Assembly (NCBI GenBank): GCA_016432285.1
Contig: CP066682.1
Span: 439,072 to 503,071, forward strand
Length of the DNA: 64,000 nucleotides
Reading direction: 5' to 3'
Source of the DNA: Candidatus Kaiserbacteria bacterium
Lineage (GTDB): Bacteria > Patescibacteriota > Minisyncoccia > Phycocordibacterales > UBA2100
Shown here: in pieces, positions 2,978-46,772 of the stretch
Numbering within the stretch: position 1 is the first letter of the stretch
How the letters are laid out: each line of letters starts with the position of its first letter
The notes under the pieces: model-generated
Told to the model about the DNA's origin: nothing
Seen by the model: the letters and a program-made list of their open reading frames with translations, nothing else
Databases searched by the model: none
Translations under genes and position numbers: made by a program

Positions 2978-3135
2978 CGGCTGCCGATAACCCCCAATCT
3001 GCTGCGTAGCGGAGCCTGCGCGTCTTGCATCTCGGGGATTCTCGGCAGCCTTGATGTGTTGACGGCGCAGGATTCTCAATGTCGCACTTCTTCTCCACAT
3101 GCTCTCAATAAGCGCTTTGCTATACTGCGGGCATC

Positions 3136-5610
3136 ATGGCGGCGCGAAAGAGCCGGATTGCAAAAAGCAACCGCACCCGCACGCCCTCCCGCTACGTGAT
3201 CCCCATGGAAGAGGCGGGGATGGATGATGTCGCGCTCGTCGGCGGCAAGAATGCATCCCTCGGCGAGATGCTCCAGGCGCTCACCTCCAAAGGCATCCGC
3301 GTGCCGAGCGGATTCGTGGTAACGGCGGAAGCGTACCGATTTTTCATCGAGGAAGCGGGGCTCGCGAATTTTATCCGCGAGGCGCTCGAAGCCTTGGAGC
3401 ACGGCGATTTGCGACAGCTCGAGAGCGTAAGCGCCGAGGTGCGCGCCCGCATCAAGAGCGCCGCGATGCCAAAAGCGCTCGAGCAGGAAATACGCGCTGC
3501 CTACAGTTCGATGGAAAAAAAATACGGCAGAAATATCGACGTGGCCATTCGCTCGAGCGCGACCGCCGAAGATCTTCCCGACGCGAGCTTCGCGGGAGAG
3601 CACGACACGTACCTCGGCGTTCGGGGCGACAAGGATGTGCTCCGGTCGGTGAAGTCGTGCTTCGCCTCGCTCTTTACCGCCCGCGCGATCAACTACCGCA
3701 TCGACAAGCACTTCGACCACTTTTCGGTTGCGCTCTCGGTGGCGATCCAGCGTATGGTGGCGACCGAAAGCGGCGCCTCGGGCGTCATGTTTACGATCGA
3801 CACCGAGACGGGCTTTCGCGATCTTGTCCTAATCAACGGCTCATGGGGTCTCGGCGAGATGGTCGTCCAGGGGAAGGTGGTTCCCGACGAATTCTTAGTG
3901 GCGAAGCGAATGATCGGCGCAGCTCCCAACCCCTTGATCAGCAAACGGCTCGGAAGCAAGCACGAAAAAATGATTTACACGCAAAAGGGAAGCGTGGGTC
4001 CGACGGAAATCGTGAAAACGTCGCCTGCGGATCGCGCGAGGTTTGTGCTCACCGACAAACAAGCGCTTCAGCTCGCGGCGTGGGGCAAAACGATCGAGGA
4101 GCACTACACCAAAAAGCGTAAGACCTACTCGCCCATGGACATCGAGTGGGGACTCGACGGCAAAACAGGTCAGCTTTTCATTCTCCAGGCGCGGCCCGAG
4201 ACGGTGCAGGTCGGGAAAGACAGAAGCAAGATCAAAGAGTACATCCGCAAGGAAGACGGCGAGGTGCTCGCGAAGGGGCTTTCGGTCGGCAACAAGATCG
4301 TGAGCGGCGTGGCGCGCGTGATCAAGAGCGTCGAAGACATGGAGGATTTGCAGCCCGGAGAGATCCTCATCACCGAAATGACCGACCCCGACTGGGAGCC
4401 GATCATGAAAAAGGCCGGCGCGATCGTTACCGACAAAGGCGGCCGCACCTCGCACGCTGCGATCGTCAGCCGCGAGCTCGGTCTTACCGCCATCGTGGGC
4501 GCCGAGACAGTTACGAAGCACATCAAGACGGGCCAGATGATTACCGTCGATACGACCTCCGCCGAGGGGCAGATCTTCAAGGGTGCGCTGCGATTCGAGG
4601 TGCGCGAGCACAGCGTCGCCGAGATTCCGGCCACCAAGACGAAAATGACCATGAACCTCGCCACCCCGGACACCGCGTTCGAAAAATCGTTTCTCCCGAA
4701 TAGCGGCGTCGGGCTCGCTCGGGAGGAATTTATCATCGCGGCGTCCGTCGGCGTACACCCCCTCGCACTCTTGCACTACAAAGAGCTCGATCCGCACCTC
4801 CAGCGTAAGATCGACGAGCGCACGCGCGGCTGGACCAATCGCAAGGAGTACTACATCGACAACCTCGCGTACGGCATCGCGAAGATCGCGACCGCATTTT
4901 ATCCGAAGCAGGTGATCGTGCGCTTCTCCGACTTTAAGAGCAACGAGTACCGCTCGCTTCTCGGAGGAGATCGCTTCGAGCCGCACGAAGAAAATCCAAT
5001 GCTCGGCTGGCGCGGCGCTGCCCGCTACTACGATCCGAAATTTAAGGAGGCCTTCGCCCTGGAGTGCGCGGCGATGCGGAAGGTGAGGGAGGAGATGGGG
5101 CTTACGAACGTGGTGCCCATGGTGCCCTTCTGCCGCACGCTTGAGGAGGGGGAGAAGGTGCTCGCGGCCATGAGCGAAGCCGGGCTCTATCCGCGGCTCC
5201 TCGCGAAGAGCGCCGCGCAGAAAAAGACGGCAACGCCTGTGATCGTGATGTGCGAGATACCCTCCAACGCGATTCTCGCCGATCAGTTTCTCGATATTTT
5301 CGATGGCATGTCGATCGGCTCCAACGATCTTACGCAGCTCACACTCGGACTCGACCGCGACTCGGGCATCGTCAATCGCGTGGCCGACGAGAACGACCCG
5401 GCGGTGAAAAAGCTGATCGCCGACGTAATCAAGATCTGCACGCGCCGCAAAAAATACGTCGGCATTTGCGGGCAGGCGCCCTCCGACCATCCCGAGTTTG
5501 CGAAGTTCCTCGTGGAGGAGGGGATCGAGAGCATGTCGCTCAATCCGGATTCGATCATCAAGACCACGGTCGCGGTCGCCGCGGTGGAAAAGCGCCTGCG
5601 GCGCAAATAG
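3136..5610 (+). CDS. ppsA: phosphoenolpyruvate synthase (pyruvate, water dikinase)
   Basis: GGKNASLGEM PEP-utilizer N-terminal motif. Phosphohistidine region GGRTSHAAIVSRELG. C-terminal PEP-binding TIM barrel. Alternative start at 3205 (MEEAGMDD) is possible, but TATACT sits 9 nt before the 3136 ATG. Confidence 0.85.
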   Translation: MAARKSRIAKSNRTRTPSRYVIPMEEAGMDDVALVGGKNASLGEMLQALTSKGIRVPSGFVVTAEAYRFFIEEAGLANFIREALEALEHGDLRQLESVSAEVRARIKSAAMPKALEQEIRAAYSSMEKKYGRNIDVAIRSSATAEDLPDASFAGEHDTYLGVRGDKDVLRSVKSCFASLFTARAINYRIDKHFDHFSVALSVAIQRMVATESGASGVMFTIDTETGFRDLVLINGSWGLGEMVVQGKVVPDEFLVAKRMIGAAPNPLISKRLGSKHEKMIYTQKGSVGPTEIVKTSPADRARFVLTDKQALQLAAWGKTIEEHYTKKRKTYSPMDIEWGLDGKTGQLFILQARPETVQVGKDRSKIKEYIRKEDGEVLAKGLSVGNKIVSGVARVIKSVEDMEDLQPGEILITEMTDPDWEPIMKKAGAIVTDKGGRTSHAAIVSRELGLTAIVGAETVTKHIKTGQMITVDTTSAEGQIFKGALRFEVREHSVAEIPATKTKMTMNLATPDTAFEKSFLPNSGVGLAREEFIIAASVGVHPLALLHYKELDPHLQRKIDERTRGWTNRKEYYIDNLAYGIAKIATAFYPKQVIVRFSDFKSNEYRSLLGGDRFEPHEENPMLGWRGAARYYDPKFKEAFALECAAMRKVREEMGLTNVVPMVPFCRTLEEGEKVLAAMSEAGLYPRLLAKSAAQKKTATPVIVMCEIPSNAILADQFLDIFDGMSIGSNDLTQLTLGLDRDSGIVNRVADENDPAVKKLIADVIKICTRRKKYVGICGQAPSDHPEFAKFLVEEGIESMSLNPDSIIKTTVAVAAVEKRLRRK

Positions 5611-6960: not shown

Positions 6961-6993
6961 GCGCTTCCCAAAGGGTGCGATACAATCATCTGT

Positions 6994-8133
6994 ATGATTC
7001 ATAGCAAGAGTGTGAAGGCCGGTCTCGTTCTCGCAGCGCTTCTCCTCCCGCTCCTCGCGACGGCTGCCGAGTGGAAGACGGGTGAGCAGTTCTCTCTGGG
7101 GAGCAGCGAACGGTACACCGACGACCTCTACATCGCGGGCGGCAACGTAACGACGGCGGCCACGATCAACGGCGACCTTGCGGCGATGGGCGGCAACGTG
7201 CTCGTCAATGGCCCCGTCTCGGGCGATATTTTCGCGGCAGGCGGCAGCGTTACGATCCTCGGATCGGTGGGCGATGACCTCCGGGTCGCGGGTGGCAACA
7301 TCACGATCTCGAGTGCCGTTCGCGGCGATCTCGTCGTCGGCGGCGGCCAGGTCAATATCTCCGGTGAAGGAATCGGTGGCGATGTGCTCGCCGGTACTGG
7401 TGTTCTTCGAATCGACGCGCCCGTGGGGGGAGATGTGGTAATCGGCGGTGGCGAAGTCGTCATCAACGCACCGGTCGGCGGCAACGTGCGATTCGCTGGA
7501 GAAAATCTCACGCTCGGCTCCGGGGCGGTCATTGAGGGCAATCTCTCGTACGCGAGCCCGAAGGAAGCGAAGCTCGAAGAGGGCGCTGTCGTCCGCGGAG
7601 AAACGAGCTACGAACAAACGCAAGACGTGCGCGGCATCGCCGAGAAGGGCTTTCTCGCCTTCATCACGCTCGCCACCATCGGCAAGTTTCTCTCGATCCT
7701 CGCGAGCGCGCTCATCATCGGGCTCGCTTTCAGCAAATACTCCGTGGCACTCGTGGAGGGCGCGATCGCGCGCCCGTGGTTTGAGATGGGTCGCGGGCTC
7801 GTCACGCTGATCCTGCTGCCGGTCTTTTCGATCATTCTCCTCGTGACGGTGCTCGGCATACCGCTCGGGCTCTTGGGCCTCACCGCATTCGTGGCCGCGA
7901 TCATCTTTTCCTCGCTCGTCGCTCCAATCATTCTCGGAAGCCTCTCGTACAAGTGGATCACGCGCACCGGCTACCTCGAAGTGTCGTGGAAGACGATCCT
8001 GCTCGGCGTCGTGCTCTACACGCTGATCGGCCTCGTGCCCTTCATCGGCCCGCTTGTGAAATTCGCGCTCGTGCTGCTGGCGCTTGGCGTAACAGCCAAG
8101 ATCAAATGGGACATCGCCAAATCCTGGCAATAA
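6994..8133 (+). CDS. bactofilin-like (polymer-forming beta-helix repeat) protein with C-terminal multi-TM domain
   Basis: Signal/TM at N-terminus. ~12 degenerate repeats of xGGNVxIxGxVxGDL type. Four hydrophobic helices at C-terminus. TACAAT 7 nt upstream of the ATG. Confidence 0.5.
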   Translation: MIHSKSVKAGLVLAALLLPLLATAAEWKTGEQFSLGSSERYTDDLYIAGGNVTTAATINGDLAAMGGNVLVNGPVSGDIFAAGGSVTILGSVGDDLRVAGGNITISSAVRGDLVVGGGQVNISGEGIGGDVLAGTGVLRIDAPVGGDVVIGGGEVVINAPVGGNVRFAGENLTLGSGAVIEGNLSYASPKEAKLEEGAVVRGETSYEQTQDVRGIAEKGFLAFITLATIGKFLSILASALIIGLAFSKYSVALVEGAIARPWFEMGRGLVTLILLPVFSIILLVTVLGIPLGLLGLTAFVAAIIFSSLVAPIILGSLSYKWITRTGYLEVSWKTILLGVVLYTLIGLVPFIGPLVKFALVLLALGVTAKIKWDIAKSWQ

Positions 8134-8254: not shown

Positions 8255-8971
8255 TCAGCGCATCTTTTTGATCTCCACGGCAACGTCGCTCGCCAGAAAG
8301 TAATACCCCCTTTTTCGTTTTGTGAGCACATCGGCGGCCGCGTTGCTCACCGCGCAGGCCTTCTTGGCAGCCGCAAGCGGCGCGAGACCCGCTGCCAGAA
8401 ACCCGGCGCAGAGTCCTGCGAGCACGTCGCCAGTACCGGCTTTCGCGAGTCCCTTATTGACCTTCAGCGAAATATGGACATTCGATGTCCATATTTTTGT
8501 GGAGGGGCCTTTTTGCAGGATCACGTTGCCGCGCGCGACGATTTTTTTGATGTCGGCATTCTTTTGCAGCAGCTTCCACTCTCCCGCATTTGGCGTGAGA
8601 ATCGCGTTGCGAAGGTCGGATCCGCGCAGGGCCTTGACGCCGTCGGCGTCGATCACCTTGGGGAGGGGGAGCCGCGCAAGCTCGCGCATCAGTCGCTGTG
8701 TCGCAGGGCGAACTCCCGCACCGTTGCCAAGAAGGAGAATGTCAGCCGTCTTCGCCTGTTTTTTGATTATCGAAAGGTGAGTGGTGGAGAGAAATTTCCC
8801 CTTTAATTTTTTCGTCATCAAATCCGGCGAGAGCGCGTTCAGAGCCCATGCCACGCGCTCGGGTGTCATAACGACTACGGATTCGGCCCCGGCGCGGAGC
8901 GCCGAGATCGCGGCGAGGTAGACCGCACCCACATACTCTTCAGAGCCGCCGACGACCAGCACTCGTTGCAT
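8255..8971 (-). CDS. nnrD: ADP-dependent NAD(P)H-hydrate dehydratase (YjeF C-terminal domain)
   Basis: GNGAG...GTGDVLAG motifs of the carbohydrate-kinase-like Nnr family. Start at MQRVLVVGG, with TATAAT 6 nt upstream on the minus strand. Confidence 0.7.
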   Translation of the reverse strand: MQRVLVVGGSEEYVGAVYLAAISALRAGAESVVVMTPERVAWALNALSPDLMTKKLKGKFLSTTHLSIIKKQAKTADILLLGNGAGVRPATQRLMRELARLPLPKVIDADGVKALRGSDLRNAILTPNAGEWKLLQKNADIKKIVARGNVILQKGPSTKIWTSNVHISLKVNKGLAKAGTGDVLAGLCAGFLAAGLAPLAAAKKACAVSNAAADVLTKRKRGYYFLASDVAVEIKKMR

Positions 8972-8987
8972 CTGCGCATTATAGCCG

Positions 8988-9023
8988 CAAAAGAAAAGCG
9001 CCCCGCAAGGGGCGCTTTTCTTT
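8988..9023. terminator. bidirectional terminator hairpin AAAAGCGCCCC-GCAA-GGGGCGCTTTT
   Basis: Perfect stem flanked by A-run and T-run, between cspA and the nnr start. Confidence 0.7.
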
Positions 9024-9029
9024 AGAGAC

Positions 9030-13835: not shown

Positions 13836-14057
13836 ATGGATGTACGGGTACATGTGAAAGCGGGCGCCCGGAGAGAGATCTTCCGCAAAGTCCGAGAAGA
13901 TCTTTTTGAAATATCGGTTCGCGAAGAGGCGGAGCGCAACGAAGCCAACGCGAGGGTCATCGAGCTTCTGGCCGCGTATGCGGGAGTCCCGCAGAAATCG
14001 GTGCGCATTATCACGGGGGCTCGCTCACCGAAGAAGCGGCTGCGCATAGTACAATAG
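13836..14057 (+). CDS. DUF167 (YggU-like) protein
   Basis: 73 aa. VHVKAGARRE...GRANxxxIELLA pattern of the UPF0235/DUF167 family. Confidence 0.6.
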   Translation: MDVRVHVKAGARREIFRKVREDLFEISVREEAERNEANARVIELLAAYAGVPQKSVRIITGARSPKKRLRIVQ

Positions 14058-14061
14058 AGAT

Positions 14062-14430
14062 ATGGACGTTCGCATCAAAACCACCGACTACACTCTGACC
14101 CCGCTCACCAAGGACTATCTCGACGGCCGCATCATGGCGCTGGAGAAATTTTTGGGGGACGATTCTCCGGTCTCGCGCTGCGAGGTGGAAGTGGGACGCG
14201 ACGCGGGGCGCCCGCGGCACGGGGCCAATATCTGGTTTGCCGAGGTCCGCCTCGTGATTCCGGGCAATAATTCTATCTACGCGCGCAACAATTCCGAAAG
14301 CGTCAACGGCGCCATCGACGACGTGAAAGAGGAGATCGAGCGGCAGCTTCGGCGTGAGCGCAAGATCCACATCCGCCTCTACCGCAAAGGCGGCGCGCTC
14401 GCGAAACGCCTCATCCGATTCGGTCGGTGA
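14062..14430 (+). CDS. hpf: ribosome hibernation promoting factor / RaiA family (short form)
   Basis: 122 aa. MDVRIKTTDYTLTPLTKDYLDGRI and the VEVGRD... pattern of the sigma-54 modulation/YfiA family. TACAAT 6 nt upstream. Confidence 0.75.
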   Translation: MDVRIKTTDYTLTPLTKDYLDGRIMALEKFLGDDSPVSRCEVEVGRDAGRPRHGANIWFAEVRLVIPGNNSIYARNNSESVNGAIDDVKEEIERQLRRERKIHIRLYRKGGALAKRLIRFGR

Positions 14431-15315: not shown

Positions 15316-15841
15316 AGATTTTGGCTGCTTTGTCGATGTAGAGGATTCCCTCGAGGTGATCCATCTCGTGCTGGAAGATGTGCGCAAGAAAGTCAGACGC
15401 CCCGCGCGTGAAAGCGCGATTGTGCTCATCATACGCCCGAATCGTCGCCTTTTCGGCCCGCATCACTTCGCCCCACTTCCCGCGCACCGAGAGGCACCCC
15501 TCGTGCTTCAGACGCTTCGTGCGCGAGATCTTGAGGATCTCCGGGTTGATGTACACCTGGTCTGGAAGGGGAGGCGTTTCTGGTTTTTCGACATCGCCGC
15601 CGATTTCGTCTGGCGCGTTGCGCGATCCTCGGGCGAGCGCCCTGCCGGAGACGATAAACAGGCGGATCGCTTCTCCCACCTGCGGAGCGGCGAGCGCGAC
15701 ACCGTACTCTTCTTTGGCGAGGAGCTTTTTCATCTCCTCAATGAGCTTTTTGATCGTGGGGCTTTCAATCTCGGCCCGTGCGATAGCCGCCGCCTTTTTG
15801 CGGAGCGCGGAGTTTTTTTCGTGAGGGATGATAGATCGCAT
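15287..15841 (-). CDS. def: peptide deformylase
   Basis: GVALAAPQVG, EGCLSV and HEMDHLEG metal-binding motifs. TATAGT 6 nt upstream. Classic def-fmt operon. Confidence 0.85.
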   Translation of the reverse strand: MRSIIPHEKNSALRKKAAAIARAEIESPTIKKLIEEMKKLLAKEEYGVALAAPQVGEAIRLFIVSGRALARGSRNAPDEIGGDVEKPETPPLPDQVYINPEILKISRTKRLKHEGCLSVRGKWGEVMRAEKATIRAYDEHNRAFTRGASDFLAHIFQHEMDHLEGILYIDKAAKIYDEEPEEQK

Positions 15842-16157
15842 AAAATCACTATACCGTTACTTTTCGCTACCGCATAAAAAAGTAGGGATCGCGGCCGGGG
15901 TGACGAGACCGCGATCCCCCTTCCGACGCTCTGCCTTGACTCAGTGCGCCGAATTGCGAGGAGAGGGAGGTAACTTCACCTCCTCCCGAGCTCGGGCGAT
16001 CGGGCGGAAATCCAATCTGCCGTCGTCGCTCCAAGTGTTCGTGGTCGCACACCTGCTCCTCCCACTGCTCCCTCCTCGCTGACGCGCTGCGCGAGGGTGG
16101 GGAGCAATCAAACCCGCGCAACTATATATTCATTTTGCGCCGTGTACAATTGCCTCG

Positions 16158-16427
16158 ATGCGGCACATCAGCACCAACATCAAGAAGACCTTCTCCAAAA
16201 CGCGCGCCACCGAGCGGGGGGAGCTCATGGAATTCTTCTGCCATCGGCTCAATATCGACCGGATCCGCGATGGCCTGCCGAAAATCACGATGGGGCGTAT
16301 GGGCAAGCTGCTCGAAGGCGTCCCGACGAAGGATCTCTACTATCTCAAGACCGTGTGCGAGGAGGCGAAGCATTTCTCCAAACGATTCTGGTTTGAGCTC
16401 AATCCCGAGAAGTACACAAAAAAATAG
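16158..16427 (+). CDS. hypothetical protein (89 aa)
   Basis: ORF with correct GC3 bias. TACAAT 7 nt upstream of the ATG. No recognisable family. Confidence 0.4.
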   Translation: MRHISTNIKKTFSKTRATERGELMEFFCHRLNIDRIRDGLPKITMGRMGKLLEGVPTKDLYYLKTVCEEAKHFSKRFWFELNPEKYTKK

Positions 16428-16574
16428 CCCCATCGGGACGAGCGTCGGTCAGGGCCGAGCTCGTCCCGCGGGGCTGGCGGACGCCGTGTCGGGCGATTAC
16501 GTCCGCGACCGCTAGAGAGACTACTTCGAGCACGCGTTTTGTCAAACACGCCCGGGCGGCTACAATACGCGGGC

Positions 16575-17591
16575 ATGGCATTTTCTTTCGCGCCCAAATT
16601 GGGGATCGATCTCGGCACGACAACGGTTCTCGTTTTTGTGCCGGGCCGCGGCATCGTCCTCAATGAGCCATCGGTCGTCGCTGTCTCGCAGACCGACAAC
16701 AAGATCCTTGCAGTGGGCAACGAAGCCAAGGAGATGGTCGGCCGCACGCCCGACGAAATCATCGCGTACCGGCCCATGAAAGACGGCGTGATCGCCGATT
16801 ACCGCGTGACGGAGGCGATGCTTCGCTACTACATCCGCAAATCGCTCGGCAAGTGGAATCTTTTCAAGCCGGAAGTCATGGTCTCGGTGCCGGCGGGCGT
16901 TACCTCGACCGAACGGCGCGCCGTGGTGGAAGCGGCCACAAAAGCCGGAGCGCGCGAAGCGTACGTGGTGAAGGAGCCGATTCTCGCCGCGATCGGCGCC
17001 GGGATTCCAATCCACGAGGCGCGCGGACACATGATTGTCGACATCGGGGGCGGCACCAGCGACGTGGCCGTGATCTCTCTCGGCGGCATCGTCGCCTCGA
17101 CCTCGGTGAAGTGCGCGGGCAACGCCATGGACCATGCGATCGCCGACTATTTGAAAAAGAATTTCAATCTCGCGGTCGGCGACAAGATGGCCGAACAAAT
17201 CAAGATCCACATCGGCTCCGCCGTCCCCATGGATGAGGAGCTCACGATGACGGTGAAGGGGCGCGATTACCTCACTGGGCTGCCGCGCTCAATCGAGCTT
17301 TCGACTAATGAGGTGGTCCGCGCGATAGGCAGGGAGCTGCGGACGATGGTGAATGCGATGAAAGACGTCTTGCAAGACACACCGCCCGAGCTCGCGGCCG
17401 ACATCATCGACAACGGCATCATTATGACGGGCGGTTCCTCGCTCCTGCGAAATCTCGCCGAGCTCGTCTTTCGGCGCACCGGCGTGAAAGCGCGGGTGGC
17501 CAAAGACGCGCCTTTTTGCGTGGCCAAAGGCACGGGCGAGGCTCTGAAGCACCTCGAAGCATACAAAAAAGCGATCATCACGAAGCGCTGA
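16575..17591 (+). CDS. mreB: rod shape-determining protein MreB (paralog 1)
   Basis: Actin-fold phosphate-1 motif GIDLGTTT. DIGGGTSD. IIMTGGSSLL. TACAAT 8 nt upstream of the ATG at 16575. Confidence 0.85.
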   Translation: MAFSFAPKLGIDLGTTTVLVFVPGRGIVLNEPSVVAVSQTDNKILAVGNEAKEMVGRTPDEIIAYRPMKDGVIADYRVTEAMLRYYIRKSLGKWNLFKPEVMVSVPAGVTSTERRAVVEAATKAGAREAYVVKEPILAAIGAGIPIHEARGHMIVDIGGGTSDVAVISLGGIVASTSVKCAGNAMDHAIADYLKKNFNLAVGDKMAEQIKIHIGSAVPMDEELTMTVKGRDYLTGLPRSIELSTNEVVRAIGRELRTMVNAMKDVLQDTPPELAADIIDNGIIMTGGSSLLRNLAELVFRRTGVKARVAKDAPFCVAKGTGEALKHLEAYKKAIITKR

Positions 17592-17690: not shown

Positions 17691-18497
17691 TCAGCGTGCC
17701 GCAGTTGGCACGCTGAAGCCCTCGATGTAACGGCCGCGGGTCTCCTTCACCAGTCGCTGCAGATTCTCGCGGCACGTTGCCGTGCCGTAATCAGGCAGGC
17801 AGTGTGCAACGACCCGTGGAAGCACGTTGACGCGGCCCCAATTCCAGTCGTCACCCGGCTCGTCAGTGACGAGGATTATGGCGTCGGGTTTTTCTTTCGC
17901 GGCTTCCTCGAGTGCACCGAATGTGTTCTCGTAGTTGCCGCGTGTCGAAAATTTGACGCCACCTGCCTCGTACTTGCGGACCTTGCCATTGGCATAGAGC
18001 CAGACACCGACGATCTTCTTCTCGAATTTCTTGATCGCGGCGAGGTAGAAGTTGGCAGTCTCTTCACGCTTGTTCGACATCGATCCCGTGTCGTCGATGA
18101 CAAGCGCAATGCGATCGCCCTTGATCTCGGAGACCGTCTTCTCGACCGTGGCCGGCGCGATTGCCGCAGGGATCTCGAGCGTCCACCCGGGCTGCAGCGT
18201 GTTGCCATAGGCCCGCATGTAGTTGTCGTTGCAGAAGTATTTGCCGCCTTTGAGGCGACCTTTGTTTTCGGTGCGGTTGCGAAACTCATCGCTGAGGTTG
18301 CCGCAGATCCGCTCGTACTTCTGCTTGAGATCTTCTTCGTTCGCCAGCAGCATGGCTTGCCAGCTCACGCCGACCTGTTTGGCGATCCAGATCAGGTTGT
18401 TGCCCGGCTTGACCGTATAGGTCTCGTTGGCCGAGGCGACAGATGCGAAGACGAAAAGCGTCGCGAGCGCGGCGAGGATACGTGAGATTGCGAACAT
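17691..18497 (-). CDS. secreted LysM + von Willebrand factor A (vWA) domain protein
   Basis: Signal peptide. LysM (YTVKPGNNLIWIAKQVGVSWQAMLLAN). vWA MIDAS-like DxTxS (VIDDTGSMS). Has an SD-like GGAGAA 8 nt upstream. Confidence 0.65.
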   Translation of the reverse strand: MFAISRILAALATLFVFASVASANETYTVKPGNNLIWIAKQVGVSWQAMLLANEEDLKQKYERICGNLSDEFRNRTENKGRLKGGKYFCNDNYMRAYGNTLQPGWTLEIPAAIAPATVEKTVSEIKGDRIALVIDDTGSMSNKREETANFYLAAIKKFEKKIVGVWLYANGKVRKYEAGGVKFSTRGNYENTFGALEEAAKEKPDAIILVTDEPGDDWNWGRVNVLPRVVAHCLPDYGTATCRENLQRLVKETRGRYIEGFSVPTAAR

Positions 18498-18596
18498 TTG
18501 GGTTCTCCGTTCGCTGGTTTCGTGGACCGGATTATCCGGTAGTTTCTAAGACTATTGTCCATCTGCAATTATAGCAGAATATACGTAAAAGTCAAG

Positions 18597-19100
18597 TTAC
18601 TGGCGCGGCTGCTGAAGCTTAGAGATGTCGTCCATGAGCTTGCGGAGATCTCCCTGAATGTCGGTGAGCGTTTTGCGCTGCTCTGCCTTTCGCGCTTCTT
18701 CTGCCGCTTCTTCGGTGGCCTCCTCTTCGGTCATTTCCTCCACGTCTTCGCTGATCTCCTCTACGTCTTCTTGCAGCTCTCCCACGTCTTCCTGAATCTC
18801 ACCCATATCTTCCTGGATCTCACCGATGTCTTCCTGCAGCTCCTCGATATCTTCGCCGACTTCTTGGAGACTCTGCGTCGTGTAGTTGATCGTCATTTGT
18901 ATGAAAATTGCGAGATAGATCGCTTCGAGCGAGACGATCGTGGTGAGGATCAAGAGCATGTCCTCGAACTCTGCGTAACCCGCTTCCACCGAGAGGAACG
19001 CGGCGATGAAAATGACCGTGTGCGCGGCGAGCGAGCCGGGGGAGCCGACCCAGCGCGTCACGCGGAGCGCCGTTTTCTGGATGTGATACGGATCCTTCAT
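18597..19100 (-). CDS. DUF1003-like membrane protein with C-terminal acidic heptad repeat
   Basis: N-terminal RVTRWVGSPGSLAAHTVIFIAAF plus a second helix, like DUF1003. C-terminus has six 7-aa repeats EDxxExQ. TATACT 7 nt upstream. Confidence 0.5.
   Translation of the reverse strand: MKDPYHIQKTALRVTRWVGSPGSLAAHTVIFIAAFLSVEAGYAEFEDMLLILTTIVSLEAIYLAIFIQMTINYTTQSLQEVGEDIEELQEDIGEIQEDMGEIQEDVGELQEDVEEISEDVEEMTEEEATEEAAEEARKAEQRKTLTDIQGDLRKLMDDISKLQQPRQ
18735..18860. repeat. 21-bp tandem repeat x ~6 encoding the acidic heptads
   Basis: cacgtcttcctgaatctcacc / catatcttcctggatctcacc / gatgtcttcctgcagctcctc, and further copies. Confidence 0.7.
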
Positions 19101-19137
19101 GCGGCGCAGTATACTCCGGCGTTGCTATAATCAAGCC

Positions 19138-19782
19138 ATGAAAACGACGCTTGTGGGGAATACGCACCTGCTTGCGGGAAGCGAAGCGGATCTGCCGCTG
19201 CTTCTCAAGTATCTTGCGGGTGAGGGGATCAAGCCCGGCGATCCAGATCTGTATGTGCGCACCTACGGGCATTTCGGGATTGATGAAGCGCGCGAGCTGC
19301 GCGAGCGCGCCAGCCTTCGGCCGATGGGGAAGCGGCGAGTCTTCGTGCTCGTGGCGCCGGATCTCAATCGCGAAGCGCAGAACGCGCTTCTCAAAACGCT
19401 TGAAGAGCCGCCCGCCGACGCTTTTTTCTTCTTCGTGCTCCGCTCTCCCGAGACCCTTTTGCCGACTTTCCGCTCGCGTGCGCAGACGTTCTCAATCGGC
19501 TCGCGGAAAAGAGACGGGTCCGTGGATGCCAAGACGTTCCTTGCCGCGACGACGCAAAAACGGCTCGATCTTCTCAAGCCGCTTTTAGAAAAGGGCGAGG
19601 AGGGAAGAGATATCGGCGCGATTCTCACGTTTCTTTCATCGCTCGAAGCAATCATAGAATCTCGGGCCGGAATCGAGGCGGTCTACCGCGCACGAAAGTA
19701 CATCACCGATAAGGGCGCGCTCGTGAAGCCCCTGCTGGAGCAAGTGGCGCTCCTGGTGCCCGCCTCAAAGTCCTCGCGCTAG
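19138..19782 (+). CDS. holB: DNA polymerase III delta-prime subunit-like (short form)
   Basis: NALLKTLEEPP clamp-loader box and SRxQ sensor (FRSRAQ). Only 214 aa, so the P-loop N-terminal part is missing. TATAAT 6 nt upstream. Confidence 0.65.
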   Translation: MKTTLVGNTHLLAGSEADLPLLLKYLAGEGIKPGDPDLYVRTYGHFGIDEARELRERASLRPMGKRRVFVLVAPDLNREAQNALLKTLEEPPADAFFFFVLRSPETLLPTFRSRAQTFSIGSRKRDGSVDAKTFLAATTQKRLDLLKPLLEKGEEGRDIGAILTFLSSLEAIIESRAGIEAVYRARKYITDKGALVKPLLEQVALLVPASKSSR

Positions 19783-19799
19783 GATATAATGAAGCCCCT

Positions 19800-20354
19800 A
19801 TGGCGAATTACGATTTCAAAACATTCGATACAAAGGTCGCAGCGGCCAAGGAATGGTTGCAAAAGGAATACCGGGGGCTGCGGACCGGCCGCGCCGCACC
19901 CGCCATTCTCGATAGCATCTCCGTCTCGGCATACGGATCGATGATGCCCCTCAAGCAGGTGGCCTCAATCGGCATCGAAGATGCACGCAGCCTCAGAGTA
20001 ACGCCCTTCGACGCATCGCTTTCGAAAGACATCGAGCGCGCCATTGCGAATGCAAGCCTCGGCGTGGGCACCGCCGCGGATTCTTCGGGCGTGCGTGTGA
20101 CCTTTCCCGAACTCACCGCGGAGCGCCGTGAGCAGCTCATAAAGGTGGCGAAGGGCAAGCTCGAGGAGGCGCGTACGACCGTGCGCCAGGTGCGCGAGGA
20201 GACATGGAAAGACATCCAAGCCAAAGAAAAGGAAGGCACGCTCACCGAAGACGACCGATTCCGCCTTAAGGACGAACTCCAGAAGCGCGTCGACAAGACC
20301 AACGAGGATTTGGAGAAAACATTTGAAGGCAAGGAAGCCGAGATGAGCGCATGA
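19800..20354 (+). CDS. frr: ribosome recycling factor
   Basis: Full-length RRF: ...LRTGRA..P.ILD.I.V..YGS..PL.Q.A.I... Confidence 0.9.
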   Translation: MANYDFKTFDTKVAAAKEWLQKEYRGLRTGRAAPAILDSISVSAYGSMMPLKQVASIGIEDARSLRVTPFDASLSKDIERAIANASLGVGTAADSSGVRVTFPELTAERREQLIKVAKGKLEEARTTVRQVREETWKDIQAKEKEGTLTEDDRFRLKDELQKRVDKTNEDLEKTFEGKEAEMSA

Positions 20355-21484: not shown

Positions 21485-21815
21485 ATTGCGGGATTTTCCC
21501 GCGGCCGATTATTTCGGCGATTGTCCTCCCTGAGACTTGGGCTGCTGTTGGGAAGCGTGTTGCGGCATGTTCGATATCAGTGTGAACGTTTGAGACGGTT
21601 GGGGCCGCTGCCGTTCCATTTCACGATATGCTGCCGGAACGCGTCTTCCTGAAGAAGGCGAGTCCATGTCGATCGGTTCCTAGTTGTGCGTGCCAATGCC
21701 AAACGAGAGAAGGACGCCTTGAGGCGCGATCCTACGCACGAGAGGGCACAGGTCGGCAAAACCTACCAAAAAGTGCCCATCGGCGCAAGCGGCTCCTTAA
21801 AAAAGCGCGATTTTG

Positions 21816-21848
21816 CAAGTACCGCGCCTGCCGGTACAATGCTCGCAC
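21816..21848 (+). promoter_or_regulatory. sigma-70-like promoter TTGCAA-N16-TACAAT placed 9 nt before the proS ATG (leaderless transcript predicted)
   Basis: -35/-10 hexamers with 16-nt spacing. No SD between the -10 box and the ATG. Confidence 0.5.
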
Positions 21849-21849
21849 C

Positions 21850-23130
21850 ATGCGCCAATCGCAGCTCTTCACCAAGACACGCCGCGAGGCACCGAAAGAC
21901 GAAGTGGCGAAAAATGCCCAGCTCCTGATTCGCGGAGGGTTCATCAGTAAAGAGATGGCAGGAGTATACAATTTTCTACCACTCGGTCTTCGAGTGTTCG
22001 AAAAGATCGTGAACGTCATACGAGAGGAGATGAATGCTATCGGTGGTCAAGAGATTTTAATGAGCAGTTTGCAAAGGCGCGAGCTCTGGGAAAAGACCAA
22101 TCGCTGGAACGACGAGGTTGTTGATAATTGGTTTAAGACAGAACTGAAAGATGGCAGCATCGTAGGATTGGGCTTCACTCACGAAGAACCGATTACGAAT
22201 ATGATGGAGCAATTCATTCCGTCATATCAAAACCTCCCCACTTACGTTTACCAGTTTCAAACTAAATTCCGAAATGAGGAGCGGGCAAAAAACGGCCTTC
22301 TGAGAACACGGGAATTCGTGATGAAGGATCTCTATTCTTTTTCTAAAAATGAAACGGAACACGTTGATTTTTACGAAAAGGCCAAAGATGCATACAAGCG
22401 CATTTTTAATCGTCTTGGAATCGGGAATAACACGTATCTTACGTTCGCTTCCGGTGGGTCATTTAGTAAATTCAGTCACGAATTCCAAACGATTTGTGAT
22501 GCAGGAGAAGACGTTATTTATATTCACAAAGATGATTACGGTAAGGGCTTAGAAATGCACCCACACCATGCCGCAATCAATAAGGAAATCTATACGGAAG
22601 ATCTGAAAAAGGATCTTGGACTCGAAGGAAGTTTTATTGAAAAGAAGGTAGTCGAGGTTGGGAATATCTTTACGCTAGGAACTCGCTTCCCAGAAGCGCT
22701 CCTCTGCCGATTTAAGGACGAGCAAGGTAAAGAGAATTACCCGTTCATGGGCTCCTACGGCATCGGCCCGGCGCGGCTGATGGGGACGATCGCCGAAGTG
22801 CTCTCGGACGACCGCGGGCTCGTGTGGCCCGCGGAGATCGCGCCCTTTGCGGTGCATCTCATCGCGATCACGGGCGGCAACGCCGACGTGGCGGCCGAAG
22901 CCGAGCGCTACTTCGAGATGCTGAAGGAGAATCACATCGAAGTGCTCTTCGACGACCGCGACGTGCGGGCGGGCGAGAAATTTGCCGATTCGGATCTTTT
23001 GGGAATCCCGACGAGGCTCGTCGTTTCGGAAAAGACGATGGCCGAGGGCGGTGTGGAAATGGTGAACCGCAAGGACAAGGCGGCGACGATCGTGGCCGAG
23101 AGCGACGTAATCGGACGCCTTTTGAAATAA
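21850..23130 (+). CDS. proS: proline--tRNA ligase (short, archaeal/eukaryote-like class II form)
   Basis: Class II motifs (FRNEER..GLLRTREF; GSYGIG). Anticodon-binding C-terminal domain. ORF extends upstream to 21628, but MRQSQLFTKT at 21850 matches homolog N-termini and the promoter position. Confidence 0.85.
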   Translation: MRQSQLFTKTRREAPKDEVAKNAQLLIRGGFISKEMAGVYNFLPLGLRVFEKIVNVIREEMNAIGGQEILMSSLQRRELWEKTNRWNDEVVDNWFKTELKDGSIVGLGFTHEEPITNMMEQFIPSYQNLPTYVYQFQTKFRNEERAKNGLLRTREFVMKDLYSFSKNETEHVDFYEKAKDAYKRIFNRLGIGNNTYLTFASGGSFSKFSHEFQTICDAGEDVIYIHKDDYGKGLEMHPHHAAINKEIYTEDLKKDLGLEGSFIEKKVVEVGNIFTLGTRFPEALLCRFKDEQGKENYPFMGSYGIGPARLMGTIAEVLSDDRGLVWPAEIAPFAVHLIAITGGNADVAAEAERYFEMLKENHIEVLFDDRDVRAGEKFADSDLLGIPTRLVVSEKTMAEGGVEMVNRKDKAATIVAESDVIGRLLK

Positions 23131-25302: not shown

Positions 25303-25306
25303 TATA

Positions 25307-27010
25307 GTGGCTGGCATGTGGGGAAAGCGGAGAAGCGTGCGAGAAATTCAGCCGGACGAAATTTTTCTCGATTCCACCAATCTTCCCGGTCGCAACGATC
25401 CGCAGTTTGAGGGCAGGGTCGTGCGTCCCGTATCGAGCCGCGCGATGTTTGGCGTGGGTGCGGTCTTCGCGATTGCTATCCTCTTTTTTGCGGCGCGAGC
25501 CTTTGAGCTCTCGGTGGTGCACGGCGAAGATTACGCCGAGGTCTCGCAAGAAAATCGGCTCGATCGATCGATCGTCTTTTCCACGCGCGGCGTGATCTAC
25601 GACCGCACCGGCAAAGAGCTCGCCTGGAACGAATCCGCCGCGCTCTCAGAGGCCTCGACGACCCCATACGCGTTGCGGCGCTACGCCGATCTTCCGGGTC
25701 TCTCGCACGTGCTTGGATTCGTACGCTATCCGAAGGCCGACGCGAGCGGCAACTGGTGGCGCACCGAGTACAGCGGCGTGGCAGGCTCCGAGCAGGCGTT
25801 TAACGATGCTCTTGCTGGGCTAAACGGCAGCAGAATGGTGGAGATCGACGCGCTCGGCAACGTGGAGATGCAAAACATCATCGAGCCGCCCGTGCCTGGT
25901 CGCGACATCACGCTTTCGATCGATGCGGAGATACAAAGCAAACTTTTTTCGGCACTCTCGACTCAGGCGCGGGCCCAAGGGTTCGAGGGAGGTGCGGCGG
26001 TGATTATGGACGTGCGCACGGGCGAGCTTTTGGCGCTCACGAGCTTTCCGGAATACGACAACGCCGGCTTTACCGAGGGCGACGCCGCAGCGATCGATGC
26101 GGCGCACGGGAGCGACAACTCGCCGCTCTTGGACCGAGCCACGAGCGGTCTCTACGCGCCGGGATCGATCGTGAAGCCGATCTTTGCCGCCGCCGCGCTA
26201 AACGAAGGCATCATCAGCCCCGAAAAGAAGATACAGTCGACCGGCGCGATTACGATTCCAAATCCGTATAATCCCGACAATCCCTCGATCTTCCGCGACT
26301 GGACCGTGCACGGATGGATCGACATGCGCGAGGCGATCGCCGTATCGTCCGACGAATACTTCTACACCATCGGCGGCGGCTTCGGCTCGCAGGTGGGGCT
26401 CGGGATCGCGCGCCTCGACGAGTATGCTCGCGACTTCGGTCTCGGCACCTCCACCGGCTTTACGATCTTCGGCGAAGAAGTCGGCGTCATACCGACGCCG
26501 GAGTGGAAGGAGAAGGTCTTCGGCGAGGACGATCCGTGGCGCATCGGCAACACGTATCACACGGCCATCGGGCAGTTCGGCTTTCAGATCACGCCCCTCC
26601 AAGCCGTGCGCTTCGTGGCTGCTATCGGCAACGGCGGCAAGCTCCTCACGCCGCAGATACTCGCTGGCGCAAAACCGGAGTACACGAGCGTCGGGGTCCC
26701 TGACGAATACCTCCAGATCGTGCGCGAAGGCATGCGCCTCGCCGTCACCTCTACCCGATCCGACGCGACCGTCAAATCACTGAGCATTCCGGGGATACAA
26801 ATCGCTGCCAAAACGGGAACGGCGCAGATCGGCACGCAGAATCAGTACATGAATTCCTGGTCGATCGGATTCTGGCCCGCTGATAATCCGCACTACGCGT
26901 ATGCAGTGGTGCTCGAAAAAGCACGCGCGGGCACGCTCTCCGGCGCCGCGCCCGGCTTCCGGCCGTTTGTGGAGTGGCTGATTGCCAATCGTCCGGAATA
27001 CATCGAATGA
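25307..27010 (+). CDS. mrdA: penicillin-binding protein 2 (elongasome transpeptidase)
   Basis: N-terminal TM. Dimerisation domain. Transpeptidase motifs SxxK (GSIVK), SxN (SSD), KTG (KTGTAQ). TATAGT 7 nt upstream. Confidence 0.8.
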   Translation: MAGMWGKRRSVREIQPDEIFLDSTNLPGRNDPQFEGRVVRPVSSRAMFGVGAVFAIAILFFAARAFELSVVHGEDYAEVSQENRLDRSIVFSTRGVIYDRTGKELAWNESAALSEASTTPYALRRYADLPGLSHVLGFVRYPKADASGNWWRTEYSGVAGSEQAFNDALAGLNGSRMVEIDALGNVEMQNIIEPPVPGRDITLSIDAEIQSKLFSALSTQARAQGFEGGAAVIMDVRTGELLALTSFPEYDNAGFTEGDAAAIDAAHGSDNSPLLDRATSGLYAPGSIVKPIFAAAALNEGIISPEKKIQSTGAITIPNPYNPDNPSIFRDWTVHGWIDMREAIAVSSDEYFYTIGGGFGSQVGLGIARLDEYARDFGLGTSTGFTIFGEEVGVIPTPEWKEKVFGEDDPWRIGNTYHTAIGQFGFQITPLQAVRFVAAIGNGGKLLTPQILAGAKPEYTSVGVPDEYLQIVREGMRLAVTSTRSDATVKSLSIPGIQIAAKTGTAQIGTQNQYMNSWSIGFWPADNPHYAYAVVLEKARAGTLSGAAPGFRPFVEWLIANRPEYIE

Positions 27011-35507: not shown

Positions 35508-37109
35508 TCAACCCCACTCTATCGTCGCCGGTGGTTTATCGGAAATGCGGTAGACGACGGCACCCACCTCGCGCACCTCGTTGGTGATCCTGCGCGCCAC
35601 TTTTTCGAGAAAATCATGCGGCAACTCCGCGGCCCGCGCGGTGAAGCCGTTGACGCTCCACACTGCCCAGAGCGCGAGCACGCGCCCGAGGCCCGCTCCG
35701 TCGCCCTTCGATTCGGTATGCATGGAGTGCGTGAGGGTAGCGCCCGCCTGCCAGACGGTGTTGTACAGATTCGCAGCACGCAGCTCCTCAATATAGATGC
35801 CGTCAGCCGCGCGTGCGACACGTAAGGTTTCCTCGTTGACCTCACCCTCGATACGCACGACGAGTCCGGGGCCGGGGAAGGGGTGGCGGATTAAAAGATC
35901 TTCGGGTACGCCGATCTCGCGGCCGAGGGCGCGTCCCGTGTCTTTCACTTGATCGGCAAGCGGTGCGATCTCCGGCACCGAAAAGGTGATGCCGGTGTTG
36001 TGGTGCACCTTGATCTCAGCGACGCGCGCGCCGGTCGCATGCCCCAAGCCGCTTTCGCGAAGGTCGGTGTAGAGCGTGCCCTGCGCCACAAAGTCCGCAC
36101 CCCATGCTTTGATCCTCTCTTCGAGCACTTCCGTATACACGCCGCGCATTGCGAGGCGCTTATCGCGCATCGCGCTTTTGCCGGCAAGCGCTTTCAAAAA
36201 TCGATCAGTGGCGTCGGCAATTTCCAGCTCAATCCAGTCTTCGGAGCCAAAATACTTTTTCACATACGCCTCGTCGTCGGGGCGATCGATGCCGCGAATG
36301 TACACGCCTTTTATTTTGCCTTCGGTGCCTCGGTGCGCCTCTTTCAGCAGATACGCGACGACCGACGAATCGGATCCGCCCGAAAGTGCGATGAGCACCT
36401 TCTTGCCTGCGATCTCTTTTTTCAGCTCAGCGATCTTCTGCGCTGAGACGCTCTCGGAAGGGAAGCGCTCCTCGATGCCGCAGATATGAACGACGAAATT
36501 CTCGTACATTCTCGTGCCCTCCTCCGTGTCGCTCACTTCCGGGTGGAACTGCACACCCCAGAGATGTTTGTGACGCCCGGCCGCCACCGGCGCGTTGTCG
36601 GTGGAGCCGAGATTCGTGAGTGCCGCGCTCTCCTCGATCGCATCACCGTGCGTTTCGAGCACTTGTGATTTCTCCGGAATGCCCGCAAAGAGCGGATCAT
36701 TTCCTCTTTGGGTAAATGTGTGCACGCCGAACTCGCGCTTTTCGTGCGGCGTGACGGGCGCGCCGACGTGCTTCGCCCACATCTGGAATCCGAGACACAC
36801 GCCGAGCGTCGGAATGCCGAGATCGAAGATTGCGTTGTCGAAAGGGGGCGGCTCGTTGTAGACCGACGCTGGTCCGCCGGAGAGGATGATGCCGGAGGGA
36901 GCGGCTTTCTTTACATCATCTGCCGTTATGGTCGACGGGTCGGCGACGACGGCGAAGACGCCGAGGCGCGCGAGCTTTTGCACGATGAGGTGATCGAACT
37001 GCGACCCCATGCTAAACAAGAGGAGAAAATGGCGCGTCTTTCGGAGGCGCATCTCTTCAGCAATCTCTTCGAGGGCTTCAGGTGAGGCTGTTTTGAATAT
37101 CCTCAGCAT
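35508..37109 (-). CDS. guaA: GMP synthase (glutamine-hydrolysing)
   Basis: GATase domain (GVCLGFQ..H..E). ATP-PPase SGGxDS (ALSGGSDSSV). C-terminal dimerisation domain. Confidence 0.85.
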   Translation of the reverse strand: MLRIFKTASPEALEEIAEEMRLRKTRHFLLLFSMGSQFDHLIVQKLARLGVFAVVADPSTITADDVKKAAPSGIILSGGPASVYNEPPPFDNAIFDLGIPTLGVCLGFQMWAKHVGAPVTPHEKREFGVHTFTQRGNDPLFAGIPEKSQVLETHGDAIEESAALTNLGSTDNAPVAAGRHKHLWGVQFHPEVSDTEEGTRMYENFVVHICGIEERFPSESVSAQKIAELKKEIAGKKVLIALSGGSDSSVVAYLLKEAHRGTEGKIKGVYIRGIDRPDDEAYVKKYFGSEDWIELEIADATDRFLKALAGKSAMRDKRLAMRGVYTEVLEERIKAWGADFVAQGTLYTDLRESGLGHATGARVAEIKVHHNTGITFSVPEIAPLADQVKDTGRALGREIGVPEDLLIRHPFPGPGLVVRIEGEVNEETLRVARAADGIYIEELRAANLYNTVWQAGATLTHSMHTESKGDGAGLGRVLALWAVWSVNGFTARAAELPHDFLEKVARRITNEVREVGAVVYRISDKPPATIEWG

Positions 37110-37247
37110 TTACGAGCATCGTACCAGAAATCCATCAATCGGGCCACGTTTCAGCCTCGGGCGAGCTTCCTGTTGCCGTGTGGATAACTGTCTTGCGGTG
37201 GGGTATAGTGCTATATACTCTATCCCAGTGGGAAAAAGTGGTAAAAC

Positions 37248-37691
37248 ATGACCAGCCTTCTTATCGGCGAATACGAGCACACGCTCGACGACAAGAAACG
37301 GGTCTCGCTCCCGAAGCAGTTTCGCGGCGCCTTCGGCAAGAAGGTCGTGATCACGCGGGGGCTCGACAACTGTCTCTACGCATATGCGCCGGGCGGCTGG
37401 CAGCGGATCGCCGAGAAGCTGCAATCGCTTTCGATCGCCGATGCAGATACTCGCGGATTCGCGCGCTTCATGCTCTCGGGTGCGGCAGAAGTAGAGATCG
37501 ACGGCATCGGTCGCATCCTAATCCCGGATCACCAAAAGACGTACGCGTCCCTCAAGAAGCGGGTCGTCTTCGCGGGGGTGTCGGATCGGGTCGAGATATG
37601 GGATGCCGAGCGCTGGAGTGCCTACAAGGCGAAGATCGACAAGCAGGCTGAGCGAATGGCCAAAAAGCTTGGAGAGATCGGCGCCCTCTAA
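37248..37691 (+). CDS. mraZ: transcriptional regulator MraZ
   Basis: Two DxxxR-containing SpoVT/AbrB-like repeats (LDDKKRVSLP; IDGIGRILIP). Confidence 0.85.
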   Translation: MTSLLIGEYEHTLDDKKRVSLPKQFRGAFGKKVVITRGLDNCLYAYAPGGWQRIAEKLQSLSIADADTRGFARFMLSGAAEVEIDGIGRILIPDHQKTYASLKKRVVFAGVSDRVEIWDAERWSAYKAKIDKQAERMAKKLGEIGAL

Positions 37692-38738: not shown

Positions 38739-39081
38739 TTTTAAAGAAGCAGCGCGCGGCGCGGCTCTCGCGGCCGAATACCCTATCGAGCGCGGAGCCT
38801 TTCGGTCGCTTTGGATAGCGCTTCTCCTTTGTGTGGCCCTCTACATGTACTTCGTCGGCGCCACGATTTTGAATGTGATCGCCCGCAAGGAGGCCTTGCA
38901 GCAGACTGCAAATCTCGCGAGCGCTGTCTCGCAGCTCGAGCGCGAGTATTTCTCAGCCGCTGCCGCGATCGGTCCCTCTGAGGGCGGCCGTCTCGGGCTG
39001 GCACCCGTTGCCGACACCGCCTTCGTGCAGCGGCCGGGTAATGCCGCAAGCGCTGCTACAATAGGCGGAAATGAAATCTAG
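38677..39081 (+). CDS. FtsL-like cell-division membrane protein
   Basis: Single TM + coiled-coil, between rsmH and ftsI. 5' end overlaps rsmH by ~60 nt, so the true start may be internal. Confidence 0.4.
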   Translation: MKKKIQKISKYAPSIFQGRIDFKEAARGAALAAEYPIERGAFRSLWIALLLCVALYMYFVGATILNVIARKEALQQTANLASAVSQLEREYFSAAAAIGPSEGGRLGLAPVADTAFVQRPGNAASAATIGGNEI

Positions 39082-42275: not shown

Positions 42276-42305
42276 GAACCCAACATATTTTATACTCGCA
42301 GCGAT

Positions 42306-42986: not shown

Positions 42987-43106
42987 ATCGCCGCGGCGCC
43001 CCCACATGTTATCGCCGCCACTCAACAGGAAAGTCGTTGGGGGGCGGCTTTTCTTTTCGGCACTCGACCGATGACGGGTTCACGACGAACGGTATAGAAT
43101 GAGCAG

Positions 43107-45491: not shown

Positions 45492-46772
<1,281 letters not shown>

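Follow-up and report, generated by a model that had tools for sequence, protein, structure and literature searches.

The window, by which we mean the whole 64-kb stretch of Candidatus Kaiserbacteria contig CP066682.1 that was analysed, has a GC content of approximately 59% and encodes about 70 genes and seven tRNAs. Many of the protein-coding genes are preceded at short distance by a hexamer resembling the bacterial -10 box, and two of these hexamers are found back to back between a pair of divergent genes. The plus-strand gene of the pair (19138–19782) encodes a holB-like protein, the DNA polymerase III delta' subunit, with a Pfam match to DNA_pol3_delta2. Its ATG at 19138 follows TGC-TATAAT (hexamer 19126–19131; site 19126–19140) with a spacer of 6 nt, and its mRNA is predicted to be leaderless; the upstream in-frame ATG at 19099 would sit 5′ of the -10 box. 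The minus-strand gene (18597–19100) encodes a DUF948-like protein of 167 aa, likewise predicted to be leaderless, and has TATACT (19113 to 19108; site 19098–19113) 7 nt before the ATG at 19100, which is the first possible start of its open reading frame (ORF). This TATACT sits within the palindrome AGTATACT. Only 37 bp lie between the two ATGs, and the upstream half of each promoter therefore overlaps the other promoter. A preliminary description of this DNA had reported divergent hexamers at 19100/19138, and both are present.

A TAnnnT hexamer is located 6–9 nt 5′ of the start codon of 27 genes within the window, and the start codon is ATG in every case. The spacer is 6 nt at 11 sites, 7 nt at six, 8 nt at six and 9 nt at four, and at 16 of the 27 the ATG is the first possible start after the upstream in-frame stop codon. 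The hexamer is found before 23 of the 46 genes that are first in their operon and before four of the 20 close-packed genes. The preliminary description listed such a hexamer at 18 starts, of which 15 are exact and three require small corrections. The starts exactly borne out are those at 3136, 8971, 14062, 15841, 16158, 16575, 19100, 19138, 21850, 31325, 44553, 45522, 47503, 49127, 56857 and 61034. For guaA (37109) both start and hexamer stand, though TACGAT fits TAnGnT and not the proposed TAnAnT, and for mrdA the hexamer TATAGT was recovered, with position 25307 being a GTG within the hexamer and the start being the ATG at 25316. The membrane protein at 59160 drops out, with no TAnnnT upstream, just CATAAT at a spacer of 6 nt or TACATA at one of 8 nt. 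Sites absent from that list were identified at 2468, 6994, 19800, 33155, 39071, 43107, 50356, 62232 and 63204, in addition to 55082, where the spacer is 11 nt. The minus-strand ORF at 13396 (TATACT, spacer 8, ATG) was set aside as a chance match, with a Pfam-confirmed PEBP gene on the opposite strand, and the motif matches at 13066 and 22532 are spurious.

The pairing of hexamer and ATG was compared with dinucleotide shuffles. TANANT-N6-ATG was observed nine times against 1.89 expected and TANANT-N7-ATG nine times against 1.95, and none of 100 shuffles reached nine for either spacer; TANANT-N8-ATG was observed five times against 2.19, and the control TANANT-N15-ATG was at expectation (2 observed, 1.72 expected). 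Counted independently of any gene model, TAnAnT precedes ATG at spacers of 6–9 nt in 26 instances, compared to approximately eight at other spacers. Under a start rule blind to the motif, which takes the initial ATG in every called ORF, TANNNT was present 6–9 nt upstream of 25 of the 71 starts and of 25 of the 1578 (1.6%) remaining ATGs (odds ratio 34, p = 4e-23). The hexamer is therefore not equally frequent at random ATG positions; equal frequency is the outcome that the preliminary description had named as contrary to its proposal. Chance or base composition (A/T-rich intergenic DNA against 59% GC overall), or a selection of starts guided by the motif, could also be invoked: intergenic DNA is richer in A/T than coding DNA, and the matches at 13396(-), 13066 and 22532 are clearly fortuitous. 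The probability of this explanation is nevertheless close to nil: the shuffles, the spacer-15 control and the motif-blind rule all contradict it, flanking positions that had no part in the selection are conserved, and comparison loci of like composition from outside the Candidate Phyla Radiation (CPR) have no spacing peak.

Alignment of the 27 sites on the hexamer, numbered as a promoter, reveals G at -14 in 21 (p = 2.5e-7), T at -15 in 13 (p = 1.4e-3), A at -9 in 20 and A at -8 in 18, none of these positions having been used in the selection, while position -10 is T or C. A -35 element with at least four of six matches to TTGACA at 16–18 bp is present at 26% of the sites compared to 9% of controls, a weak but significant excess, and an independent promoter scan returned full -35/-10 promoters at mreB and proS. 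The best explanation of the hexamers, judged from these signatures, is that they are -10 elements of sigma-70-type promoters, mostly of the extended -10 class with the predicted consensus tGnTAyAAT and a weak -35. They share with known extended -10 (TGn) sigma-70 promoters the T-15/G-14 preceding TAnAAT and a -35 that is weak or dispensable. No difference from that class is seen at the sequence level; what is special here is the placement against start codons and tRNA 5′ ends.

The same class of hexamer is located 8–11 nt 5′ of the mature end of five of the seven tRNA genes. The gene for tRNA-Val (28208–28222, plus strand) has TATAAT 8 nt ahead of its 5′ end and that for tRNA-Glu at 42305 (42291–42306, plus strand) has TATACT 8 nt upstream, and the others are TACGAT upstream of tRNA-Pro at 28327 (28313–28327), TAGACT upstream of tRNA-Arg at 33088 (33088–33103, minus strand) and TGC-TAGTAT upstream of tRNA-Ala at 33465 (33448–33465). 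Among CPR relatives, hexamer-to-tRNA spacing peaks at 9–15 nt. Because these RNA genes are untranslated, the hexamer is a transcription signal and not a ribosome-binding site, and a -10 box only 8–11 nt before the tRNA implies tRNA 5′ leaders of approximately 1–8 nt.

The tRNA genes also bear on the proposition that the hexamer is an A/T-rich ribosome-binding or translation-enhancer element, unrelated to the Shine-Dalgarno (SD) sequence, within a longer 5′ untranslated region (UTR), as in the Bacteroidota-type genomes of group B discussed below. In its favour, SD sites are absent here, A/T-rich sequence precedes the other genes, and the motif occupies the position of a ribosome-binding site, which shares its distance of 6–8 nt with the -10 box of leaderless genes (PMC6028130). 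This proposition is regarded as unlikely, given that the hexamer precedes tRNA genes, that the motif is missing from the internal genes atpE, atpH, atpA and atpG in both the window and its relatives, and that the invariant T-12, A-11 and T-7 together with G-14/T-15 are typical of sigma-70 contacts. In addition, some sites possess proper -35 boxes at 16–17 bp, and at 8971 a terminator hairpin directly upstream leaves no long leader available.

The placement of the start codons was examined using Pfam boundaries and orthologue alignments; an NCBIfam scan of stop-to-stop translations named ppsA, nnr, csp and an MFS protein and is too coarse for N-termini. Pfam profiles open 1–5 residues past the proposed ATG for hpf, def, mreB, prs, ychF, the DUF5671 protein and atpD, and orthologue alignments open at residues 1–3 of the proposed starts. 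The preliminary description held that the motif settles ambiguous starts, and this is upheld at 8971, where an alternative upstream TTG is ruled out because the perfect csp terminator hairpin lies inside the extension, and at 44553, where orthologues of the encoded kinase align from residue 1. The gene at 56857 has an alternative ATG at 56848 inside the hexamer, and the public gene call uses the ATG inside the -10 box. If the -10 boxes were real and the true starts lay further downstream, the mRNAs would be leadered and the adjacent ATG incidental. The start codons are sequence predictions, and in a few genes, atpB and the 44553 kinase among them, the match to profiles or orthologues does not begin until residue 11–42, as that account would have it. 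Its probability is judged to be very low in view of the Pfam and orthologue boundaries above, the sharp peak in ATG-to-hexamer spacing, which is not expected for an incidental ATG, and the retention of the ATG at that spacing in relatives.

The csp-nnr junction (8969–9029, minus strand) is itself extremely compact: 58 nt accommodate the terminator (GCGCCCCttgcGGGGCGC, then TTTTCTTTT), the box GGC-TATAAT, its 6-nt spacer and the start codon of nnr.

About half of the transcription units in the window are thus, in our assessment with high probability, predicted to yield mRNAs that are leaderless or have leaders of 1–3 nt, with SD sites essentially unused. The leaderless mRNAs proposed in the preliminary description find sequence-level and comparative support in the promoter signature, the tRNA sites, the operon heads, the start placement and the conservation. 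Motif position, statistics, promoter signatures, conservation and SD absence are direct observations, from which the transcription start sites and the ribosome pathway described here are predicted. The sigma-70 holoenzyme would bind tGnTAyAAT, and transcription would begin 6–9 nt downstream. At the 11 sites with a 6-nt spacer, the canonical +1 would be the A of the ATG, and with longer spacers it would precede the ATG by at most 1–3 nt or so. An mRNA 5′ end at or near the AUG would therefore leave no room for a ribosome-binding site, and the ribosome and initiator tRNA would bind the 5′-terminal AUG directly with no SD pairing. Direct binding of this kind is the established leaderless pathway, and the exclusive use of ATG is consistent with initiation on a 5′-terminal AUG.

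Several observations weigh against predicted leaderless expression. At the ten sites with spacers of 8–9 nt the canonical +1 falls 1–3 nt before the ATG, often on an A 2–3 nt 5′ of it (as in the CATCATG that recurs upstream of ppsA, prs and atpB), and such transcripts may have leaders of 1–3 nt and be functionally leaderless rather than have no leader. At four sites the distance from the preceding gene is only 17–38 nt, and read-through from that gene would place the hexamer-bearing gene inside a longer transcript. The promoters have weak -35 elements, and the gene list derives from a simple self-trained caller. Lastly, the SD sequences of the P-II gene, the gene at 43737 and the LysM gene, described below, suggest that some anti-SD function may persist.

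Hexamer-to-ATG spacing was compared across 41 CPR loci (633 kb) and 39 non-CPR loci. The AhcY protein encoded in the window is 70–77% identical to proteins from metagenome-assembled genomes (MAGs) labelled Candidatus Kaiserbacteria, Nomurabacteria, Paceibacterota or Patescibacteria, and the order guaA, penicillin-binding protein (PBP), kinase-ahcY and atp operon is conserved in contigs of relatives, which identifies the organism as a CPR bacterium of Parcubacteria/Paceibacteria type. Across the 41 CPR loci, TA[TC]A[AC]T precedes ATG 51, 36 and 25 times at spacers of 6, 7 and 8 nt against a background of 13, and no spacing peak is found in the 39 non-CPR loci. Three low-GC CPR loci (L039, L042 and L075) show no clear peak and have a high background. 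The motif is present before 27% of the first ATGs of long ORFs in CPR relatives compared to 7% in non-CPR loci. For ahcY, 36 CPR orthologues exhibit a -10 box at a spacer of 6–9 nt in 50% (mostly TATACT), an SD (free energy of -6 kcal/mol or lower) in 6% and an ATG start in 97%, whereas the 36 non-CPR orthologues, drawn from Planctomycetota, KSB1, Calditrichota and others, exhibit a -10 box in 3%, an SD in 81% (mean -8.2 kcal/mol) and an ATG start in 44%, the SD occupying the position of the box. The 81% also serves as a positive control for SD detection. The kinase at 44553 has a -10 box at a spacer of 6–9 nt in 77% of 22 CPR orthologues and at a spacer of 5–10 nt in 18 of 23. One 2-kb contig labelled as a Methanosarcinales archaeon (L005, CAZBFZ010000159.1) encodes an ahcY that is 74% identical, and TATACT stands 8 nt upstream of its start codon. 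Given this identity and the CPR-type layout, the contig probably comes from a CPR bacterium and was mis-binned.

The SD sequence appears to have little part in the remaining genes. Predicted pairing with the anti-SD averages -2.67 kcal/mol over 40 non-leaderless window starts and -2.83 kcal/mol over random positions, which is no enrichment, and -6 kcal/mol is reached by 7% of 177 orthologue-anchored starts from relatives compared to 9.6% of random positions. SD 4-mers are not enriched upstream of the non-leaderless starts, and when k-mers were searched de novo for some other G-rich ribosome-binding site, only A/T-rich words (ATAA, TAAA, AATAA) emerged, none of them SD-like. The near-absence of SD sites noted in the preliminary description therefore agrees with anti-SD pairing that stays at the level of random positions, both in the window and in relatives. 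A search for 16S rRNA, by its 3′ tail and universal sites, found none in the window or in any of the 81 loci.

The SD-like exceptions proposed earlier were a PP2C gene and a vWA gene. The identity of the PP2C gene is confirmed by Pfam and it has only a weak AAAGG, and the gene at 43737 does carry UAGGAGA before its ATG (43726–43739, plus strand), with the vWA identity unconfirmed by Pfam. Better SD sequences that had been left out are those of the P-II and LysM genes. No SD in the window is stronger than that of the P-II gene (32755–32768, minus strand), where AAGGAG (-8.8 kcal/mol) is followed by a GTG at 32755; this GTG is also the one non-ATG start that is well supported. The LysM gene (18497) has the SD-like ACGGAGAA behind a leader of 70 nt.

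Leadered first genes and internal genes have A/U-rich, G-poor upstream regions and frequently show stop/start overlaps or gaps of 1–14 nt. At position -1 relative to the start codon, the 40 window starts lacking an adjacent -10 box have U in 57% and C in 28% (p = 4e-7; for example 914, 23133, 49994, 50805, 51212 and 56464), and 164 orthologue-anchored starts in CPR relatives (L001–L032) have U in 73% and C in 21%. The leaderless candidates have no pyrimidine bias at -1. The non-leaderless starts further have locally high A at -3 and -6 and are depleted of G from -8 to -4. Crude first-ATG starts show a weaker enrichment of U at -1, which is also seen in non-CPR loci (37% compared to 24% at internal ATGs). 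In a system free of SD pairing, the U at -1 may serve to extend the codon-anticodon contact, and the cistrons without a hexamer presumably use SD-independent initiation or termination-reinitiation coupling.

Three described systems invite comparison. Genomes of group C in GeneMarkS-2 have a Pribnow box 6–8 nt from the starts of first operon genes, with 25–50% of operons leaderless, and are typical of Actinobacteria (Mycobacterium tuberculosis) and Deinococcus-Thermus (Deinococcus deserti) (PMC6028130). The window resembles group C in position and frequency, with spacers of 6–9 nt, 23 of 46 first genes and ATG only, but differs in that leadered and internal genes of group C use SD-type ribosome-binding sites while those of the window show no SD enrichment, and in belonging to a CPR/Parcubacteria-type lineage. 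In group B, that of Bacteroidota with a Kozak-like A-rich context, SD is also unused and the upstream region is A-rich and G-poor, as in the window, with A maxima at -3 and -6 in its relatives. However, group B has one non-SD motif before both first and internal genes and leaderless mRNAs are not the rule, whereas the TAnnnT of the window is promoter-like, limited to the heads of transcription units and not shared with internal genes. To our knowledge, descriptions of group B do not include a strong U at -1. In the Parcubacteria themselves, the CCTCCT anti-SD was detected in only 48%, leading to the conclusion that some members probably form no SD helices (Tsurumaki et al. 2022, RNA; PMC9297842). 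That study, on the same broad lineage, covered rRNA and ribosomal proteins and not promoters or mRNA 5′ ends; the scarcity of SD sites in the window forms the mRNA-side counterpart.

The layout is known in other phyla, and the leaderless principle is well established in Actinobacteria and Deinococcus-Thermus; in a Parcubacteria-type lineage with general disuse of SD it is apparently undescribed. A full-text search, which excluded most subscription journals, for papers tying leaderless mRNAs to CPR, Patescibacteria, Parcubacteria or Saccharibacteria gave only incidental reference-list matches. A broader proposal, which we advance as a tentative one somewhat short of an even chance, is that this lineage abandoned SD/anti-SD pairing for a system with two modes, in which leaderless extended -10 units account for about half and SD-free initiation serves elsewhere. 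The first mode would consist of extended -10 promoters set against the ATG, equally tight against tRNA 5′ ends, and the second of a near-obligatory pyrimidine at -1 (approximately 73% U) on AUG-only starts, perhaps through an extended codon-anticodon contact with tRNAfMet. If true, such a system would be an mRNA-side explanation of the anti-SD loss reported in Parcubacteria. Predicted leaderless expression offers a concrete answer to how translation may begin in Parcubacteria reported to be without the anti-SD motif, would add a large uncultured radiation, one whose ribosomes are reduced, to the groups in which leaderless expression dominates, and bears on whether leaderless initiation is an ancient or an easily regained mode. 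In practice, gene callers that rely on SD will misplace starts in such genomes, the public call for the 56857 gene being an example, and a -10-anchored model would correct many N-termini in CPR MAGs.

The other hexamer-bearing genes of the window are on the plus strand unless stated otherwise. With a spacer of 6 nt, a hypothetical protein of 169 aa has TGC-TAGAGT before the ATG at 2468 (2456–2470), and the NAD(P)H-hydrate dehydratase gene nnr, on the minus strand, has GGC-TATAAT before the ATG at 8971 (8969–8983), directly behind the csp terminator hairpin. Also in this group are hpf (TACAAT, ATG 14062; 14050–14064), def on the minus strand (CGG-TATAGT, ATG 15841; 15839–15853), a hypothetical protein of 89 aa (TGA-TATGCT, ATG 33155; 33143–33157) and a hypothetical protein with TAGAAT before the ATG at 43107 (43095–43109). 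The PfkB kinase gene follows GGC-TATAAT (ATG 44553; 44541–44555), an alpha/beta hydrolase gene follows TACAGT (ATG 47503; 47491–47505), and a class I aminoacyl-tRNA synthetase gene follows TGC-TACGCT (ATG 63204; 63192–63206). The atpF gene (TAGGAT, ATG 50356; 50344–50358) has a weaker site that is without conservation in relatives. Within the same operon, a TATAAT (TGTATAAT) located 13 nt before the atpA ATG (51193–51214) is conserved in relatives and was left uncounted; it falls where atpH encodes its conserved C-terminus, and TGTATAAT could be an internal promoter or the result of coding constraint.

A spacer of 7 nt is found for a hypothetical protein of 379 aa (TACAAT, ATG 6994; 6981–6996), a second hypothetical protein of 89 aa (TACAAT, ATG 16158; 16145–16160), PBP2/mrdA (TGA-TATAGT with the hexamer at 25303–25308, ATG 25316; 25303–25318), ahcY (CGG-TATACT, ATG 45522; 45509–45524) and a 631-aa protein (GGC-TACAAT, ATG 56857; 56844–56859). 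At a spacer of 8 nt, mreB has the full -35/-10 promoter TTGTCA-16-GGC-TACAAT before the ATG at 16575 (16539–16577), prs has TGG-TACAAT (ATG 31325; 31311–31327), and guaA on the minus strand has TGG-TACGAT (ATG 37109; 37107–37123) with an in-frame stop immediately 5′ of the ATG. The same spacer occurs at a PBP transpeptidase gene (TGC-TACAAT, ATG 39071; 39057–39073), at ychF (TGC-TATGAT, ATG 61034; 61020–61036) and at the gene for the DUF5671 protein, where TTGTCA-17-CGC-TACGAT precedes the ATG at 62232 (62218–62234); the protein of this last gene has an exact match only on a 6.9-kb Logan metagenome contig from run SRR12113420, which reaches no further than the window. The four sites with a spacer of 9 nt are those of ppsA (TGC-TATACT, ATG 3136; 3121–3138), frr (GGA-TATAAT, ATG 19800; 19785–19802), proS (TTTGCA-17-CGG-TACAAT, ATG 21850; 21812–21852) and atpB (TGG-TATGAT, ATG 49127; 49112–49129).

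Two regions of the window look like insertions. A stretch of low GC content (47%) at 28700–30050 adjoins a cluster of four tRNA genes and carries the PP2C gene, and orthologues of the two genes at 43107 and 43737, in the region 43100–44470, are missing from relatives that are otherwise syntenic.

Some genes of the window are leadered. The mraZ gene (37248; region 37204–37250) has GTGGGAAAAAGTGG repeats between its TATAGT/TATACT boxes and the ATG that are conserved in relatives, and these resemble MraZ operator repeats. A gene encoding a 188-aa protein at 46917 (46880–46919) is leadered in the window and in the relatives L006, L025, L026 and L036, with TGTGCTAnnAT approximately 30 nt upstream; its 5′ UTR contains a short GC hairpin (GGGAgtgaTCCC in the window), and an SD-like GGGAG forms the hairpin stem. 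The best canonical promoter in the window (18497–18595, minus strand) is TTGACT-16 bp-TGC-TATAAT, located 70 nt 5′ of the LysM-protein ATG at 18497. An out-of-frame ATG at 18562, 5 nt past this -10 box, opens an ORF of 56 codons that overlaps the LysM start; this ORF may be a leaderless one acting upstream of LysM, or it may have arisen by chance.

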